From: a virus | Lineage: Duplodnaviria; Heunggongvirae; Uroviricota; Caudoviricetes | Length of the DNA stretch: 8,743 nt | IMG/VR virus record: IMGVR_UViG_2526164651_000002 | Direction: 5' to 3' (one strand) | Part shown: positions 1-8,743 of the stretch, one piece after another | How the letters are laid out: each line of letters begins with the position of its first letter | Numbering within the stretch: the stretch's first letter is position 1 | Translations under genes and position numbers: made by a program | Notes under the pieces: generated by a model | What the model saw: only the letters and a program-made list of their open reading frames with translations | The model's database searches: none | Told to the model about the DNA's origin: nothing

Positions 1-662
<662 letters not shown>

Positions 663-890
663 TTTCGCATTGGCTAACTCCTTCGTGTATTTAGCATCGA
701 GTGCATCAGCAGCACGCTGGCGCTGCTGCATGTCAGTAATGGTTGCGTTCGCCAGCTTCAGTTCTCTTGCGTTTTTGTCGCGCTGCTCTTTGTAGGTAAT
801 GGCGTTATCACGGTAATGATTAACAGCCCATGACAGGCAGACGATGATGCAGATAACCAGAGCGGAGATAATCGCGGTGACTCTGCTCAT
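663..890 (-). pseudogene. Rz i-spanin, N-terminal ~75 codons, 3' end replaced by IS911
   Basis: [55 protein letters not shown]... has an N-terminal TM segment and coiled-coil start typical of lambdoid Rz. ATG at 888-890 overlaps the endolysin stop (ATGA). The frame runs into the IS911 terminus and stops at 660-662. Confidence 0.75.
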
Positions 891-1384
891 TGCTGCCCCC
901 ACAAACAGACTTCACGCTCAATCTCACGACGGGTCATCAGCCCTTTCCATTGCTTACCGCCAGCATATGTCCAGCGACGTAGCTGGTCACATGCGCCTTT
1001 GATATCGCCCTGGTTTATTTTGCGAAGAAGCGTCGATGTTCTGAAATTGCCAGCGCCCACGTTGTAAACGAACGAGTAAAGAGCGCCGCGCGTTGTTTCC
1101 GGTATATCGACTTTGATGTACGGGTTAATTTGTCTGGCGACAGTGACAAGGTCTTTATTCAGGAGAGCTTTGCATTCTGCTTCGGTATACGTTTTACCAG
1201 GCATGATGTCTTTTCCGGTGTGTCCGTGACATACAGCCCATACACCAATGATATCTTTGTATGGTATGTAGCTGACACCTTCCAGACCATCGTTACCACC
1301 TGGGCCAGTGATTAACACAGATGCTATAGCAACAGCCCCGCCACCAATAGCAACTGCAACAGCCTTGCGTAATGATGGCGACAT
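887..1384 (-). CDS. Phage lysozyme R, phage-21-type SAR endolysin (T4-lysozyme-like muramidase)
   Basis: 165 aa. The N-terminal Gly/Ala-rich weakly hydrophobic segment [20 protein letters not shown] is a SAR-domain signature. The E-x8-D-x5-T catalytic spacing ([24 protein letters not shown]) is present. Strong resemblance to R21 / DLP12 RrrD as recalled. Start overlaps the holin stop (TAATG). Confidence 0.9.
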
Positions 1385-1599
1385 TATTCACCTCTCGCAG
1401 CCTTACGCTTATCTTCTCTTATTTTGAAATACAGATTCGTCAGATAAGTCAGAAGCCCCAGAAGCAGACTTCCCAGCACACCAATCGCAGCCCACTGTGA
1501 TGGACTGACCTGATCCAACCACTGCAAAAACCAGTAGCCGGCACTGCCGGCGTAGGTGCCGTAGGCAATGCCTGTTGATATTTTTTCCATCTGATACAT
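1384..1599 (-). CDS. Class II holin (S21-like pinholin) with dual-start motif MYQM
   Basis: 71 aa: [71 protein letters not shown]. Two TM segments and a charged C-terminus. Met1 and Met4 give the antiholin/holin start pair. SD-like GGGGGCGGGA lies upstream. The ORF-track N-terminal extension to 1698 is rejected. Confidence 0.85.
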
Positions 1600-1630
1600 A
1601 TCCCGCCCCCGACAGACCTGTGCTATCGGA

Positions 1631-1663
1631 AAGAAAAAGGCCATCAGCAAAACTCTGATGGCC
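1631..1663 (-). terminator. Intrinsic terminator on the minus strand, ~30 nt upstream of the holin start
   Basis: Minus strand reads GGCCATCAG-agttttg-CTGATGGCC followed by TTTTTCTT (9-bp perfect stem, 7-nt loop, T-tract). Confidence 0.6.
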
Positions 1664-1772
1664 TGAATCACCTTTACCAATATTGTATGAAAAAACACGC
1701 ACGACTAATTGACAATAATTTTCATTTCCATTAAAAAAGATCGCGTAGCATTCTTAATTCATGAGGAACTTT

Positions 1773-1840
1773 ACCCGCCAGCAATCTGAGTAGCGAAAGC
1801 TGTTCATCCCCAATGTTTTTGCTGGCGGGTCCTTTTTTCT
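1773..1840 (+). repeat. 12-bp perfect inverted repeat (acccgccagcaa / ttgctggcgggt) separated by 34 nt, followed by T6 on the plus strand
   Basis: Seen directly: 1773-1784 and 1819-1830 are exact reverse complements; TTTTTT at 1834-1839. Function unknown (terminator-like for plus-strand transcripts, or a protein-binding palindrome). Confidence 0.7.
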
Positions 1841-2277
1841 ACGGTCCTCCTCCCCGGAGGGGGGCATTTCATTATTTTTCTAATCGTTACTGGTGAGAAG
1901 GCGGAAGAAAAAGCCAGTTCTTCGCCCCTAAATAACAGCATGATTCCAGTACATGCAAAATCTGATTTCCAGCTCACACATACCGAGTACTGTACAAAAA
2001 ACCGCCAACCAAGGCAGTTAAGAGTGTGTTCCCGGGGTTTGCTTAGAATATTTTGTAAGTTGTCCGAAGAGATATTTACAACACCAGAATGATGCATTAT
2101 CAGTCCCCTGCCAGAGGTTCACTACGTAACCTGACCGACAATGCACCATTCTGGTGCTGAAAAAAGAGCACTGGAACTGCAACAAAACAACATCACAGAA
2201 CAGGAGATGGTAAGGAGTCAGACATTCCCACACAATATTGTGTCAGTGCAAATAACAACCTTCGTCTCAAATCTCGC

Positions 2278-2352
<75 letters not shown>

Positions 2353-2355
2353 ATA

Positions 2356-2431
<76 letters not shown>

Positions 2432-2433
2432 GC

Positions 2434-2510
2434 TGGCCCACCACCGAGGACTCGAACCTCGCACCGTCAACTTAGAAGGTTGATGCTCTATCCGGATGAG
2501 CTAGTGGTGG
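2434..2510 (-). tRNA. tRNA-Arg (anticodon UCU), decodes AGA
   Basis: Reverse complement CCACCACTAGCTCATCCGGATAGAGCATCAACCTTCTAAGTTGACGGTGCGAGGTTCGAGTCCTCGGTGGTGGGCCA. 7-bp acceptor, D-stem GCTC/GAGC, anticodon stem TCAAC/GTTGA with loop CUUCUAA, T-arm CGAGG-TTCGAGT-CCTCG. The 5' C start is unusual; exact ends need tRNAscan. Confidence 0.75.
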
Positions 2511-2512
2511 TT

Positions 2513-2588
2513 GGTGGCCCTTGCTGGACTTGAACCAGCGACCTGGCGATTATGAGTCGCTCGCTCTGACCAACTGAGCTAAAGGGCC
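2513..2588 (-). tRNA. tRNA with CAU anticodon, ileX-like (probably lysidine-modified tRNA-Ile2 reading AUA; elongator Met not excluded)
   Basis: Reverse complement GGCCCTTTAGCTCAGTTGGTCAGAGCGAGCGACTCATAATCGCCAGGTCGCTGGTTCAAGTCCAGCAAGGGCCACCA. Anticodon loop CUCAUAA. Acceptor and anticodon arms closely resemble E. coli ileX as recalled. Confidence 0.8.
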
Positions 2589-2597
2589 GGAGGCAGA

Positions 2598-2626
2598 ATA
2601 ATAACCATATGTCATCACATCTGCAA
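2598..2626 (-). promoter_or_regulatory. Candidate sigma70 promoter for the tRNA array (-35 TTGCAG, 17-bp spacer, -10 TATTAT)
   Basis: Minus strand reads TTGCAG-atgtgatgacatatggt-TATTAT-tctgcctcc, then the first tRNA begins at 2588. Sequence inspection only. Confidence 0.4.
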
Positions 2627-2676
2627 ACTCATCTGACCACCAGCACGTTTAACGTCCTGTGCCGTTTTTCAGGTAT

Positions 2677-2705
2677 AAAAAAACCCGCATAAAGCGGGCT
2701 CTTTC
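2677..2705 (-). terminator. Intrinsic terminator downstream of the putative Q gene (candidate tR')
   Basis: Minus strand reads gaaagag-CCCGC-TTTAT-GCGGG-TTTTTTT, a GC stem with a 7-T tract, ~75 nt after the Q-like stop codon. Confidence 0.7.
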
Positions 2706-2777
2706 AAATGTCCATGTCTGCTATTCGCCTCGCGGTACAGCTTTGCGAAGCGTACAAGAATTGAAGCAGTTTTTACG

Positions 2778-3332
2778 TCAAAAAGCAATAACTTTTTTCT
2801 CTATACCAAAAGCCATAACCATTGGTTTGTACAAAATAAATTCTGCCACCTTTAGCCAATGCTCAATGCGTCTTTCACAGGTTCTTAAACTCCATTTCGG
2901 GTGTGCATCATTCAGCAGTTCAGCCATTTTGCGTTTGGTCATCCCCCGCCCCTCATACCGTTGCCGAAGGACGCTAATCAATCCTGGATGCTCTGCCAGC
3001 ACCTCACTTATGACCCGATCAATACATAACGCCTCTGCATCAGTACAATGCGCCAGCCAGCTCTTTTGCTTACCGTTAATCATATCCCGCAAAAAAGCCT
3101 CAAGTTCAGACTTGTTCAGACCTGCTTTTTTCATCCTCCGGAGCGCCTCGTTAATTGCCGTTTTTGTCAGCTTTTTAGAGGTCAACATCAGGTTAAACAT
3201 ATTCCCCGTCTTACCGCCACCAATATACGACCAGCGCCCCCACATACGTAGTTTTCCCTGAATCCAGACACTTTCCAGCGTGGTGAGACGAAGGTGTTCT
3301 CCGCTTTTTCCTGTATTCGTTGGGTAAATCAT
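2778..3332 (-). CDS. Putative late-gene antiterminator Q (phage antitermination-Q-like), 184 aa
   Basis: Position is canonical: after nin-region genes and before a terminator and the lysis cassette. Start at 3330-3332 is preceded by AGGAGG with a 7-nt spacer and overlaps the upstream stop (ATGA). Family assignment is from recollection plus context, not a search; the ORF-track extension to 3452 is rejected. Confidence 0.5.
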   Translation of the reverse strand: MIYPTNTGKSGEHLRLTTLESVWIQGKLRMWGRWSYIGGGKTGNMFNLMLTSKKLTKTAINEALRRMKKAGLNKSELEAFLRDMINGKQKSWLAHCTDAEALCIDRVISEVLAEHPGLISVLRQRYEGRGMTKRKMAELLNDAHPKWSLRTCERRIEHWLKVAEFILYKPMVMAFGIEKKVIAF

Positions 3333-3619
3333 AAATATCCCTCCTTTCTCCAGATTTCTTGTGTGCGAAAAACACCTTCTGCATGCATCAGGCGTAATTC
3401 TTCTTTGGTGTAATCGCTGGTTTTTACCCGCCCGTCGATTAAATCGTGGCACGAGCTACAGGCAATCGCTGCCTGCATATCGTGTGGCTTTATCGCTGTT
3501 CCGCACGTTCCCGCCAGTCGGTAATGCGCCAGCACAGACGTTTCCGGATCGTGATTGCAGTAGCCAGGAATTCTGACGGTGCACATCTGCCCCCGCGCCG
3601 CTTTAAGTAAATCCACCAT
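3329..3619 (-). CDS. YbcO-like nin-region protein (DUF1364, putative Zn-binding nuclease), 96 aa
   Basis: MVDLLKAARGQMCTVRIPGYCNHDPETSVLAHYRLAGTCGTAIKPHDMQAAIACSSCHDLID... has the cysteine pattern and length of DLP12 YbcO as recalled. Translationally coupled to both neighbours (TAATG at 3617-3621, ATGA at 3329-3332). Confidence 0.6.
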   Translation of the reverse strand: MVDLLKAARGQMCTVRIPGYCNHDPETSVLAHYRLAGTCGTAIKPHDMQAAIACSSCHDLIDGRVKTSDYTKEELRLMHAEGVFRTQEIWRKEGYL

Positions 3620-4218
3620 TACGCAAACTCCAGCAGCTGCGCGGCCACATTTTCGACTTGTTCCGGAGAGGAAAATTTACGGAACAGAATCCAGTTCCAC
3701 AGCACATTCAGTACAGATTTATAAACCTGCTGAAACTCGGTTTCGTCCATATTCGCAAACGCGATAGATTTCGCCCGACACCCACGGCTACCGTCCGGAT
3801 AAAAATGCTCGGTGTAAAATCCGGCCTGAATGGCTACCCACTCGCGGAAAGCCTCAAACGACTTTAGCAATGCCGTATCACGGGTTCTGCGTGTCGCAAC
3901 TGTATTCAGATATTGCTCTGCGGCTTCGCTCAGAGCTGGCGTATGTTCCCGGCCTACTGATTCACACAGGTAATCAACGAAACCGGACACCAGTTTTCGT
4001 TCGCGAGGCGTGATCGCCCCACCGATCGGAGTCCAGTAATCGAAACCCAGTTGCAGGAGTTTGAAAAAACGCTTGTGGAATGCGTAGTTACGCACACGCT
4101 TAAAGTCTGCGTGTATCCACTCACCTATTTTGATTTGATGCAGAAAATCGCAACTCTCCGGCGTCGCCGGGAGAAGTAATCCGGAAGAGGTTTGTTTGAC
4201 CAGTTGTATATGTGCCAT
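3619..4218 (-). CDS. YbcN-like nin-region protein (DUF1367 family), 199 aa
   Basis: Start MAHIQLVKQ... at 4216-4218 has the RBS GGAGAAAG. Motifs FHKRFFKLLQLGFDYWTP and AKSIAFANMDETEF resemble the YbcN family as recalled. The ORF-track upstream extension to 4260 is rejected. Confidence 0.5.
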   Translation of the reverse strand: MAHIQLVKQTSSGLLLPATPESCDFLHQIKIGEWIHADFKRVRNYAFHKRFFKLLQLGFDYWTPIGGAITPRERKLVSGFVDYLCESVGREHTPALSEAAEQYLNTVATRRTRDTALLKSFEAFREWVAIQAGFYTEHFYPDGSRGCRAKSIAFANMDETEFQQVYKSVLNVLWNWILFRKFSSPEQVENVAAQLLEFA

Positions 4219-4256
4219 CGGCTTTCTCCGGTGGCACGGTGTTACACAGCAGGAGT

Positions 4257-4544
4257 TCAATCCTGCTCAAGATTGTAGATGAGTTTATTCTTCAGCAAAA
4301 GCAGAAAACCAGCCTTAAAACCAATCTCTTTCAAAACCCGTAATGATGTGACAAATTCGTCCTCACGCAAAATAAAACCGTCCGTCAGAAGTCCATTACA
4401 AAAATAAAATAACACAGCACCGCTCTTCCTTTGTTGAGATTGCAAACATCTAATGCGGCAATGGCTGACAATCGCTCCATTCTCAACGCGCACAGCATAG
4501 AGGCCATTTTCACTAAAAATTTCACGCAATTCTTCGATTTTCAT
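4257..4544 (-). CDS. Hypothetical protein, 95 aa, no family recognised
   Basis: ORF with a plausible RBS (GGAAGGA ~8 nt upstream of the ATG at 4542-4544). Lies between the hok terminator and the nin genes. Confidence 0.4.
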   Translation of the reverse strand: MKIEELREIFSENGLYAVRVENGAIVSHCRIRCLQSQQRKSGAVLFYFCNGLLTDGFILREDEFVTSLRVLKEIGFKAGFLLLLKNKLIYNLEQD

Positions 4545-4664
4545 CTTCAGAATCCTTCCAGATAAATAGCTCTCCCCTGTTCGGGGTCCATCCCTCTTCT
4601 CCCTGCGCGCTACTTAAGTGAGTCGATTCTATCTGCGAAGGTGCGCGAATCAAATTCACCGGAA

Positions 4665-4716
4665 ATAAACAACAAAAAACCCGCCGAAACGCTGAGAGAT
4701 CACAGCGATGGGCGGG
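4665..4716 (-). terminator. Terminator-like stem-loop with T-tract downstream of hok (also a candidate hok mRNA 3' fold-back element)
   Basis: Minus strand reads CCCGCC-cat-CGCTG-tgatctct-CAGCG-tttc-GGCGGG followed by TTTTTTGTTGTTT. Confidence 0.5.
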
Positions 4717-4793
4717 TTAAGTGCGGGTGCGTTGAGGATGCCTGACACATCAGAGGTGGGCGGGGATGGGATCAGCTCCCCACCCGGTCACTC

Positions 4794-4949
4794 TTACTTC
4801 CTGGATTCGTAGTCTACGAAGACAGCGACCTCCGTCTGGCCGGTTCGGATTCGTACCTCACAGAGGTCTTTCCTCGTTACCAGTGCCGTCACTATGACGG
4901 TTAAACAGATGACGATCAGGGCGATTAACATCGCCTTTTGCTGCTTCAT
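4794..4949 (-). CDS. hok: Hok/Gef-family type I toxin, 51 aa
   Basis: MKQQKAMLIALIVICLTVIVTALVTRKDLCEVRIRTGQTEVAVFVDYESRK has the single TM helix and conserved C-terminal CEVRIR...EVAVF motif; very close to HokD/RelF as recalled. RBS AAGGAG lies 9 nt upstream. The in-frame upstream extension to 5006 may be a mok-like leader frame. Confidence 0.85.
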   Translation of the reverse strand: MKQQKAMLIALIVICLTVIVTALVTRKDLCEVRIRTGQTEVAVFVDYESRK

Positions 4950-5176
4950 AGCCTGCTTCTCCTTGCCTTTCGGCATGTAAGAGGCTAACCTACATGTGCA
5001 AAGCATGAAATTGGCCTCAGATTAATGTTAAGCGTCTTGCCGGACGCGTAATGTTAACTGGGGCTTTTCTCTATCTGCCTTTTGGTGTTCATGCCTGAAG
5101 CAGATAGCCTCAAGCACCCGCAGTCATTCTACTTACCTCGCCAATATGAAATCAATCAGAAAGGTGCCCCATAAAA

Positions 5177-5863
5177 TCACTCCTTCTCTTCTTTACCGTA
5201 GTGGAGTTGACCAATTTTGATAAGAGGGCGTCCCTGAGATTTGCGGTGTAGATTGGTATCGCGCAGAGAATACACACAGCCACAATATTCCTGCTGATAG
5301 AATTTTTCGCGCTTGCTGATTTCAATCATACGGGACGAGCCGCCCTGCTTGCGCCAGTTATAATCCCAGTACACCATGCCCGGATAATGCGCGACGGCTC
5401 GCCGCCCACAGTCGTTAACCTGCTGCATATTTTTCCAGCGTGAAATGCCCAGTGAACTGCTGATCACACTGAAACCATTTTCAGCGGCGTACAGCGCTGT
5501 CCGCTCAAAACGCATGTCAAAACACATGGTGCAACGGATCCCTCGTTCGGGCTCCCATTCCATTCCTTTGGCTCGTTCAAACCAGTTGTCTGTGTCGTAA
5601 TCAGCATCAATAAACGGCACGCCGTGTTGTTCAGCAAAGCGAATATTCTCATCCTTACGAATTAAATACTCTTTCTGAGGATGAATGTTCGGGTTGTAGA
5701 AAAAGATGGTGTAGTCGATTCCCGAGGCCTGAAGCGCCTCCATCACCTCACCGGAACATGGAGCACAGCAAGAGTGCAGTAGTAGTTTGTTTGCCCCGTT
5801 TGGGAGCTCCAATTTGGGCCGTTTGAAATCAGCAACTGTCATAAATATGTTTATTGGGGTCAT
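5177..5863 (-). CDS. QueH-like epoxyqueuosine reductase (DUF208 family), 228 aa
   Basis: Hallmark motifs [30 protein letters not shown] and [12 protein letters not shown] match the DUF208/QueH signature as recalled. The true start (Met1 or Met8) is uncertain and neither has a clear SD. Confidence 0.7.
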
Positions 5864-6082
5864 AAAAATATCAAAGAGTGTAGCATTAGAACGGGGCTAT
5901 CGGAAACAGATGTGTGACTGCTCCCCGCCCTTTCGGGCGGTCTCCTGATGATTTGAGGGTGCAGAAATCCCTCCGGTTAAGGATTAAATTTTTAACAGTG
6001 CTAAATTTAATTATTCAGTTCTGGATTTTGTCGCCCTGCGTATCCGCGCTTTCGCGTTACGCTCAATCTGTATCTGAAGTGG

Positions 6083-7260
<1,178 letters not shown>

Positions 7261-7322
7261 GTGTTGTTCTGAGGTGAGCATATCACCTCTGTTCAGGTGG
7301 CCAAATTCAGTGTGCCACTTCA

Positions 7323-7397
7323 AACTGAATTTATGCCAGCAATGGCAGGGATTCGCTCAACCTTAATTAAGGAGAAAAACATGAACACCAATTATGA
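7323..7397 (+). other. 75-bp orphan segment between IS911 and IS1, holding an RBS and the first six codons (MNTNYE) of an unidentified gene cut by IS1
   Basis: aaggagaaaaacATGAACACCAATTATGAG runs straight into the IS1 terminus at 7398. Confidence 0.4.
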
Positions 7398-7412
7398 GGT
7401 AATGACTCCAAC

Positions 7413-7916
7413 TTACTGATAGTGTTTTATGTTCAGATAATGCCCGATGACCTTGTCATGCAGCTCCACCGATTTTGAGAACGACAGTGACTTCCGTCCC
7501 AGCCTTGCCAGATGTTGTCTCAGATTCAGATTATGTCGCTCAATGCGCTGAGTGTAACGCTTGCTGATAACGTGCAGCTTTCCCTTCAGGCGTGATTCAT
7601 ACAGCGGACAGCCATCCGTCATCCATACCACGACCTCAAAGGCCGACAGCAGGCTCAGAAGACGCTCCAGTGTGGCCAGAGTGCGTTCACCGAAGACGTG
7701 CGCCACAACAGTCCTCCGTATCCTGTCATACGCGTAAAACAGCCAGCGCTGACGTGATTTAGCACCGACGTAGCCCCACTGTTCGTCCATTTCAGCGCAG
7801 ACAATCACATCACTGCCCGGTTGTATGCGCGAGGTTACCGACTGCGGCCTGAGTTTTTTAAGTGACGTAAAACCCTGTTGAGGCCAACGCCCATAATGCG
7901 TGCACTGGCGCGACAT
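7413..7916 (-). CDS. insB: IS1 InsB frame (expressed as the InsAB' transposase by -1 frameshift)
   Basis: 167-aa ORF with the typical IS1 InsB sequence; slippery TTAAAAAACTC lies on the minus strand around 7851-7860. Confidence 0.9.
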
Positions 7917-8110
7917 CCGACGCCATTCATGGCCATATCAATGATTTTCTGGTGCGTACCGGGCTGAGAGGCGGTGTAAGTGAACTGTAGTTGCCATGTT
8001 TTACGGCAATGAGAGCAGAGATAGCGCTGATGTCCGGCAGTGCTTTTGCCGTTACGCACCACGCCTTCAGTAGCGGAGCAGGAAGGACATCTGATGGAAA
8101 TGGAAGCCAC
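7835..8110 (-). CDS. insA: IS1 InsA (zinc-finger/HTH transposition regulator)
   Basis: 91 aa, [40 protein letters not shown]..., the canonical InsA sequence. Confidence 0.92.
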
Positions 8111-8165
8111 GCAAGCACCTTAAAATCACCATCATACACTAAATCAGTAAGTTGGCAGCATTACC

Positions 8166-8743
8166 GTCTTGCCGAAGAAGATCCAGCTTCTGCAACCAGG
8201 CCATTCAGAACTGAAGTGAAGCGCAGTCGACTGTTAATTGACGAGTATCTGTTAATCAGGAAAATAGCAGACGTCCAGAACGAATGGTTCGGCCTTTGCA
8301 TGGATCTTGCACTGGTAACAGGACAGCGCGAAGGAGATCTGGCGGCTATGAGATGGGAGGATATAAGAGATGGCAGGCTATACGTGGAACAACAAAAAAC
8401 AGGGGCAAAAATTCGCATTTCTCTCCCCACCACGATTTCCAGATTGAATTTAACACTTGCCGATGTACTGGATAACTTGAAAAAAATAAACGGTAAAAAC
8501 GAAAAGTTACTCGGAGGGAAGACAGCCAGGACAATCGCAGCACAGTTCAGGATTGCCCGAGACACATCCGGATTGAAATGGGAAGGTGACCCACCGCCAT
8601 TTCATGAAATCCGAAGTTTATCCGGTCGCCTGCACTCAGCAGAAAAAGGCAGTGATTTCACTCAGGCGCTCCTTGGACATCGTTCATCCAGCATGACGGA
8701 TAAATACCGTGACGGACGAGGGAGGGAATGGAAAGACATTTAG
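8166..8743 (+). pseudogene. Lambda-Int-like tyrosine integrase, C-terminal catalytic domain only (~191 codons), 5' part removed at the IS1 junction
   Basis: ...CMDLALVTGQREGD..., YVEQQKTGAKI, FHEIRSLSGRL, LLGHRSS and MTDKYRDGRGREWKDI align residue by residue with the lambda Int R-K-H-R-H-Y catalytic region as recalled. Stop TAG at 8741-8743. The first 58 codons of ORF 7991..8743 are IS1 sequence. Confidence 0.9.

Follow-up and report, generated by a model that had tools for sequence, protein, structure and literature searches.

Results

A defective lambdoid prophage that retains queH

The window, by which we mean the whole 8,743-nucleotide stretch of DNA that was analyzed, carries a queH gene on the minus strand as an open-reading frame at 5177..5863, which codes for 228 amino acids in the ORF listing. 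Directly downstream of it, as a separate module, lie a mok/hok type I toxin ORF (4794..5006, minus strand; Pfam HOK_GEF, E = 9.8e-23) and a hok/sok regulatory RNA region (4944..5119, minus strand) that scores 117 bits with Rfam RF01794 (sok), above the gathering score of 59. An earlier note on this DNA, made from the sequence alone, had placed the gene upstream of a type I toxin, and the mok/hok and sok matches bear this out. A sigma-70-like site on the minus strand (5155-5126), starting about 20 nt past the queH stop codon, fits the hok mRNA promoter. A hokD gene is also annotated in the prophage of E. coli FDAARGOS_944 that carries an identical queH, and hok adjoins queH in 67 of 82 sampled copies, making it the usual, though not obligatory, neighbor. 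Four tRNA genes (2278-2588) have the identities Gly-TCC, Thr-TGT, Arg-TCT, and Met/Ile-CAT; as none of these anticodons is of the GUN type, none of the four tRNAs is a queuosine (Q) substrate, as had been noted before.

Comparison with an intact prophage of E. coli FDAARGOS_944 (L001) accounts for the remainder of the window. Positions 663-6074 are collinear with L001 at 99.76% identity, and the two copies of queH are 100% identical. Collinearity stops at 6074 and restarts ~ 5.9 kb further on. At this point, a complete IS911 (6075..7318, minus strand), which encodes transposase domains and is named by PGAP as an “IS3-like element IS911 family transposase”, replaces the replication and immunity region; it lies upstream of the queH ORF at a distance of 211 bp and is co-oriented with it. 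The same comparison delimited a partial IS911 at 1-662, 79 bp that remain of the early-left region at 7319-7397, an IS1-sized element at 7398-8165, and the 3′ part of the integrase gene at 8166-8743. In all, two blocks are missing from this prophage: ~ 5.9 kb with the genes for replication and immunity, the region of the early rightward promoter (pR) among them, and ~ 4.7 kb with the genes for recombination and excision. The window is a defective lambdoid prophage, decayed by IS911 and IS1, in which queH is intact.

The translation start of queH

Translation of queH probably begins at the ATG at 5842, giving a coding sequence at 5177..5842 (minus strand, stop codon included) and a protein of 221 rather than 228 amino acids with a Pfam QueH domain. 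The first seven codons of the long ORF are probably untranslated because the position of Met8 coincides with the N-terminus of the enterobacterial QueH homologues in an alignment, PGAP gives 666 nt and 221 amino acids for the E. coli FDAARGOS_944 gene, which is 100% identical, and the allele of the E. coli A10 prophage (L008) has an in-frame stop within codons 1-7 while the remainder of its frame is intact. The in-frame extension at 5843..5863 (minus strand) is without coding conservation and is probably 5′ UTR. No Shine-Dalgarno sequence was visible 5′ of either ATG (5863 or 5842). The exact 221-residue protein is present in NCBI as “epoxyqueuosine reductase QueH” of Shigella sonnei and, as a MULTISPECIES record, of Enterobacteriaceae, on at least 1000 contigs. 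The earlier description of a 228-residue QueH-like product is upheld as to the family, through the match to Pfam PF02677, while the length is most likely 221 residues.

Family assignment, conserved residues, and fold

The protein matches Pfam PF02677 (QueH, DUF208) over positions 1-174 of the 175-position profile, with an E-value of 1.9e-65 and a score of 220.6 bits, above the cutoff of 23.5. The three cysteine motifs reported earlier are all present in the translation, HSCCAPC at residues 30-36, CTMCF at 111-115, and YCGCVYS at 193-199 in the 228-residue numbering used throughout, and the profile match places their occurrence far beyond chance; the profile search that the note had proposed as a check puts the protein firmly in QueH. 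No NCBIfam model matched in a profile scan, so the QueH name assigned by PGAP must derive from another rule. In a phmmer search of the PDB, the best match was the QueH of Thermotoga maritima (7lc5, E = 5e-22).

Residue conservation was assessed in an alignment of 43 sequences, consisting of the window QueH, 41 full-length representatives at 37-80% identity drawn from a search of a 1.84-billion-protein representative set, and T. maritima QueH. All invariant columns are kept in the window protein (C32, C33, P35, C36, N59, R69, E106, R110, C111, C114, K144, C194, and C196), as are the further invariant or near-invariant positions N57, E65, Y66, R118, Q191, G195, and S199. The predicted metal-ligand cysteines C32, C33, C36, C111, C114, C194, and C196 are present, in columns that are invariant or 98% conserved among the 43 sequences. 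Six of them correspond to C9, C10, C87, C90, C169, and C171 of T. maritima QueH (window C32, C33, C111, C114, C194, and C196) in the shared CC-x-P, C-x-x-C, and C-x-C patterns. The two proteins belong to the same Pfam family and have the same fold (T. maritima structures 7LC5, 7LC7, and 9DEU). They differ in that they are only ~ 30% identical, the T. maritima gene is chromosomal whereas this one is phage-borne, and Asp13 of T. maritima aligns with Cys36, leaving the window protein without the acidic residue at that position. Cys is the family norm here, occurring in 42 of the 43 aligned sequences and in 103 CCAPC motifs against 3 CCAPD in a motif census, and T. maritima Asp13 is the exception; Cys36 is therefore not disqualifying for membership in QueH. 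Asp thus does not define the family, and the sole hint at a role for Asp13 is that T. maritima QueH was crystallized as a D13N mutant (9DCO). The expectation that alignment to characterized QueH proteins would confirm both the Fe-S ligand cysteines and a catalytic Asp was thus borne out for the cysteines, all of which are kept, and not for the Asp, in place of which the window protein has the majority residue of its family. A further difference from T. maritima QueH is a conserved C-terminal tail of ~ 25 residues (RDTNxHRKSQGRxLIKIG..YYG), common to gammaproteobacterial QueH.

An AlphaFold2 model of the window QueH reached a mean pLDDT of 74.8 and is only moderately confident, since the underlying alignment was shallow (29 homologues, all at least 76% identical). 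In Foldseek searches of the PDB with this predicted model, the top five matches were the five T. maritima QueH entries (E = 1.7e-11 to 4e-10), with target TM-scores of 0.82-0.85 and rmsd values of 2.6-2.9 Å. The next group consisted of the PP-loop proteins LarE and TtuA, at E-values of about 1e-5.

queH is an accessory gene of the nin region

Among 5426 complete E. coli genomes, queH was found at ≥ 90% nucleotide identity in 995 (~ 18%), nearly always as a single chromosomal copy, while queG was found in all 5426. This agrees with the earlier proposal that such a gene would be accessory in hosts that use QueG. Every context inspected was either a lambdoid prophage (FDAARGOS_944, 042, and A10) or phage HannyBb, and the slot was identical in all four, with DUF977 and replication genes on one side of queH and hok/DUF1367-DUF1364-DUF1133 on the other in these four independent prophages and phages. 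At this locus, queH is prophage cargo and not a ubiquitous core gene, the latter being the finding that the earlier note had named as contrary to its view. The order in intact prophages is ydaU/ydaV and DUF977, followed by queH, hokD, DUF1367, DUF1364 (YbcO), DUF1133, the tRNAs, and holin/RrrD/Rz, and the isolated phage HannyBb has a matching layout. This order places queH in the nin (delayed-early) region, ahead of the Q-like antiterminator DUF1133, and the tRNAs in the late operon, which corrects the earlier assignment of queH and the tRNA array to the same late region.

In IMG/VR, 191 viral contigs encode a relative. A tblastn search of 50,697 phage records gave 25 matches, of which HannyBb alone was credible. 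The other matches were set aside as mislabeled bacterial DNA, among them the 328-kb Acinetobacter phage MD-2021a, which carries soxR, T6SS, and metabolic genes, and the UNVERIFIED fecal “Bacteriophage sp.” MT835504, which carries ABC transporters, argH, and a topoisomerase.

A single-gene cassette with a candidate promoter

The extent of the mobile unit was taken from the limits of homology among prophages. Homology to the E. coli A10 prophage is confined to 5173-5890, with both flanks different, and homology to HannyBb and to the E. coli 042 prophage extends to 5913. The minimal mobile cassette is thus placed at 5173..5890, ~ 720 bp that comprise the gene and ~ 48 nt upstream. The prophage L009 presents the converse arrangement, retaining the flank that ends at 5135 and the one that starts at 5925, with other genes between them, and DUF7167 and hypothetical-protein genes fill the queH slot in L009 and in other related prophages. 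queH is a single-gene cassette that is swapped for different cargo in sibling prophages.

A scan for consensus sigma-70 -35/-10 promoters found nothing upstream of queH and detected just the hok mRNA promoter downstream, and no intrinsic-terminator-like site was found on either strand in 4700-6200. Across 14 classes of prophage upstream sequence, the sole invariant non-coding block is CTCTrATGCTACAC, which contains a putative extended -10 element, TGCTACACT (5877..5885, minus strand), 40 nt upstream of the ATG at 5842; in the A10 allele, the hexamer is TACACA. The end of the minimal cassette at 5890 just takes in this element. The same TGCTACACT is found at -40 of the Erwinia queH, and TGCTAAAAT is found at -44 of a Citrobacter-type locus, while TAnnnT hexamers start between -41 and -33 in Providencia, Photorhabdus, Pantoea, Proteus, Gibbsiella, and one further lineage. 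A TAnnnT hexamer starts in this 9-nt interval (-41 to -33) upstream of queH in 9 of 10 independent enterobacterial lineages, against an expectation of 2.4 ± 1.3, and none of 5000 mononucleotide shuffles reached 9; the interval was picked after inspection, and the positional profile has one clear peak. The conservation and position of this element suggest that queH carries its own putative promoter and may be expressed in lysogens. Such a promoter would explain how the gene could be useful in the window, which is without the phage early promoter. Alternatively, the window copy could be transcribed by read-through out of the co-oriented IS911.

Morons such as lambda bor and lom are single accessory genes with their own promoters, placed between conserved phage genes. 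queH resembles a lambdoid moron in that it is one gene which some prophages have and others lack at a fixed slot between conserved modules, in that other cargo can take its place, and in that it has a candidate promoter of its own; it differs in that no downstream intrinsic terminator was detected.

Chromosomal relatives and selection on the prophage alleles

Beyond the E. coli/Shigella cluster, the closest relatives are the QueH proteins of other Enterobacterales, at 79-90% amino acid identity (Erwinia, Providencia, Proteus, Photorhabdus, Gibbsiella, Ewingella, Pantoea, Citrobacter koseri, Enterobacter, and Klebsiella). At all loci inspected, these genes are chromosomal and outside phage contexts. 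In Erwinia, the order is purL-queH-glrK; in Providencia, queH adjoins tmcA, dapE, and purC (tmcA-queH-purC); in Photorhabdus, it adjoins benE and toxin-complex genes; and at the Citrobacter-type locus, LysR and acetyltransferase genes lie alongside. The phage and chromosomal proteins are alike over their full length, sharing the N-terminus and the C-terminal tail, and their genes share a similarly positioned -10-like element. They differ in setting, with housekeeping or otherwise non-phage neighborhoods for the chromosomal genes, compared to an accessory cassette in the prophage nin region, carried by 18% of E. coli. Since the relatives at 79-90% identity are chromosomal, the phage gene appears to be an enterobacterial housekeeping-type queH that was acquired by a temperate phage.

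The full frame is intact in 83 of 84 sampled copies, and all 84 are intact from Met8. These copies comprise 21 DNA alleles but just 8 protein variants. Pairwise Nei-Gojobori comparison of the prophage alleles to the window allele gave dN/dS values of 0.013-0.057, at dS values of up to 0.37. queH has been under strong purifying selection within its prophage lineage.

Discussion

Proposed function of the phage-borne QueH

Given the family assignment, the cassette structure, and the selection on the gene, we think it likely that queH of the Rac/lambda-like phages of E. coli and Shigella is a captured single-gene moron encoding a functional, B12-independent QueH for host tRNA. The cassette would have come from the chromosome of some other Enterobacterales bacterium, apparently bringing its own extended -10 promoter along. 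By homology, the protein is predicted to bind an Fe-S center through its seven conserved cysteines, the basis for the metal site being PDB titles and secondary citations. The enzyme, if active in E. coli, would work at position 34 of host tRNA-Asp, -Asn, -His, and -Tyr, where it would convert epoxyqueuosine (oQ) to Q by reducing the oQ34 epoxide to the Q34 cyclopentenediol; the 80-90% identity to chromosomal QueH of related bacteria and the strong purifying selection support this activity indirectly. The final step of Q synthesis in the lysogen, and perhaps in lytic growth as well, would then no longer depend on B12. A more specific statement, that a functioning and self-promoted QueH is a lysogenic-conversion gene of temperate lambdoid phages in E. 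coli and Shigella and uncouples Q maturation from B12, is one that we hold tentatively and place slightly on the doubtful side of even.

The B12 rationale has arguments on both sides. To our knowledge, E. coli cannot synthesize cobalamin de novo, and the host QueG needs B12, so a phage queH would make Q maturation B12-independent. The gut usually supplies E. coli with corrinoids, which weakens the argument from B12 scarcity. Redundancy with the universal queG also makes a selective benefit of the phage gene less certain. The reaction predicted for this QueH is that of QueG, the conversion of oQ34 to Q34 on tRNA (EC 1.17.99.6), but the two enzymes are unrelated in fold and cofactor: QueG requires cobalamin and belongs to the E. 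coli core, whereas QueH uses only iron and is prophage-borne here. This division is consistent with past work, in which the last step of Q synthesis catalyzed by QueG was found to be cobalamin-dependent (PMC4646009), and QueH has been treated as a cobamide-independent (PMC6461909) or iron-dependent (PMC9508795) alternative and described as a non-orthologous replacement of QueG (PMC5372724; PMC6063277). Staphylococcus aureus has both QueG and QueH, which are expressed differently (PMC13443448).

Alternative explanations

The enzyme might act on host tRNA to the benefit of the lytic cycle instead, expressed as a delayed-early gene from pR through the nin region and tuning the decoding of NAU and NAC codons in phage messages through a higher Q/oQ ratio in infected cells. 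In HannyBb and in every intact prophage, queH lies within the nin region and points the same way as the early rightward operon, which fits this explanation, as does the outcome of the standard scan, which found no canonical promoter upstream of the gene. In Shewanella, phage infection is reported to raise Q and lower oQ through induction of queG (bioRxiv 10.64898/2026.03.05.709803, a preprint). The -10-like element, however, moves with the cassette and is common to chromosomal queH genes, and the window copy is 100% identical to that of an intact prophage even though its early operon, including pR, is deleted. The explanation also leans on a presumed difference in decoding between oQ and Q. 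We regard a purpose mainly in lytic growth as unlikely, although expression in the lysogen and use in the lytic cycle are compatible and not mutually exclusive. It is much less likely still that queH is a neutral or decaying hitch-hiker without current function in E. coli and Shigella. Every host genome already has queG (5426/5426), the window prophage is heavily degraded by IS911 and IS1, and a Shine-Dalgarno sequence is not evident, which are the points in favor of such a passenger. The dN/dS values of 0.013-0.057 across the prophage alleles, at dS of up to 0.37, disfavor decay, and the intact frames from Met8 in 84 of 84 copies, the reduction of 21 alleles to 8 protein variants, and the retention of all family-invariant residues point the same way.

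The possibility that we consider the most improbable is action on a target other than tRNA, such as a 7-deazaguanine base of phage DNA or a free nucleoside. Phages do use preQ0-derived bases in their DNA (PMC6884629), and PDB structures of QueH in complex with GMP and with free queuosine indicate that the pocket binds nucleosides. The phage clusters known for 7-deazaguanine chemistry (DpdA with FolE/QueD/QueE/QueC) are similar to the present case in that they are phage-borne genes of the queuosine/7-deazaguanine pathway, but they serve to place preQ0-type bases in phage DNA, whereas queH is a lone Q-specific gene of tRNA maturation. In an annotation-based check of the complete HannyBb genome and the 24.7-kb intact prophage L001, no DpdA/TGT-like transglycosylase and no FolE, QueD, QueE, or QueC for preQ0 synthesis was annotated, so the alternative of 7-deazaguanine chemistry that had been raised in the earlier note finds no support there. 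Hutinet et al. (2019, PMC6884629) detected no Q-specific genes in 7-deazaguanine phages, and the 80-90% identity to chromosomal QueH in housekeeping neighborhoods likewise argues against such a target. A PADLOC scan returned no defense-system match, and a role of queH in defense was dropped on that result.

Significance and current annotation

Function on host tRNA, by a QueH that the phage supplies, remains the reading we prefer, and it would have consequences for the host. A Q-specific tRNA-modification gene is kept as mobile phage cargo in ~ 18% of E. coli, beside a universal B12-dependent isoenzyme. If the enzyme is active, the phage would determine how strains differ in oQ versus Q when B12 is limiting, and in about one-fifth of E. 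coli strains oQ/Q would respond to B12 differently than in K-12. Activity would also bear on Q-dependent translation, on metal and oxidative-stress phenotypes, and on virulence in E. coli and Shigella.

The identity of the protein is not new, as RefSeq/PGAP already gives the name QueH to the exact sequence; this is a known and annotated enzyme in a phage context that has been little noticed. [quoted passage not shown] (2019, PMC6884629), and a full-text literature search combining QueH, DUF208, or epoxyqueuosine with phage or prophage found no report of a phage-borne QueH. If the proposed function is correct, queH would be the first documented case of a phage carrying an enzyme of the Q-specific tRNA branch. 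Phage annotation, both in PHROGs and in Pharokka-style records, is still without a function for the gene: its family in PHROGs is phrog_3217 (E = 1.7e-138), listed as “unknown function”, and the HannyBb record labels queH a “hypothetical protein”.

Representation of queH in phage annotation and sequence records

Against the PHROGs database, the queH gene (window 5177-5842) matched phrog_3217, a family that carries the label "unknown function". The phrog_3217 profile has 188 positions, the first of which falls at residue 34 of the 221-aa QueH, and it therefore does not contain the CCAPC motif. The internal Met41 (numbered on the 228-aa open-reading frame) is also the start of many database family members. 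QueH family identity is probably masked in phage annotation pipelines by N-terminally truncated gene calls.

Several INPHARED records containing queH are not phage genomes; chromosomal bacterial genes flank the gene. Two of these, CAKLQH020000001.1 and CAKLQF020000001.1, are named "Acinetobacter phage MD-2021a", are 328-379 kb in length, and place queH among genes such as soxR and those of a T6SS. In the third, MT835504.1, the one record checked among the UNVERIFIED faecal "Bacteriophage sp." contigs, queH lies amid ABC transporters, argH, and a topoisomerase.

The representative search also returned QueH domains (54-60% identity) inside very long predicted proteins of 719-1398 aa (P0125, P0128, P0135, and P0138), as well as one joined to a ribosomal protein S21 domain (P0089). 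These long and S21-joined proteins may reflect either gene fusion or faulty gene prediction.

Insertion sequences and loss of the early region

The surviving 5.4-kb prophage segment, which contains an Rz fragment, lysozyme, holin, tRNAs, a Q-like module, hok, and queH, is flanked by two inverted copies of IS911, an arrangement that resembles a composite transposon. The left copy (window 1-662, plus strand) extends past the window edge and cuts the Rz gene at 662/663, and the right copy occupies 6075-7318 on the minus strand. Comparison of window 6075-8743 with positions 12899-24176 of L001, the intact relative in E. coli FDAARGOS_944, revealed two IS-mediated losses, one of ~5.9 kb that removed replication genes, cro/cI-like immunity, and Rha, and another of ~4.7 kb that removed recE, gam, xis, and the 5′ part of int. 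IS911 is separated from an IS1-sized element (7398-8165) by a residual 79-bp prophage island (7319-7397). Together with the name that NCBI gives to the exact QueH protein, the IS load suggests that the source is Shigella (sonnei-like).

Features neighboring queH and the tRNA array

At window 5925-5940, just beyond the queH cassette and with the putative -10 ~40 nt downstream, the minus-strand sequence ccgccc-gaaa-gggcgg is a perfect GC-rich hairpin. No U-tract follows it on the minus strand, and the plus strand has only a weak T-rich tail. The sequence from 5925 onward is common to prophages without queH, such as L009.

Between hok and DUF1367, a 95-aa open-reading frame (4257-4544, minus strand) gave no Pfam match and matched phrog_340 (E=6e-20), also labeled "unknown function"; its counterpart in L001 is annotated as a hypothetical protein.

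The fourth tRNA (2512-2588, minus strand) was called Met (CAT) by ARAGORN, and the identical gene in L001 is tRNA-Ile according to PGAP, i.e., with a lysidine-modified CAT anticodon. The array differs among prophages, with only Gly and Thr in the E. coli 042 and A10 prophages and Arg and Ile in L009.
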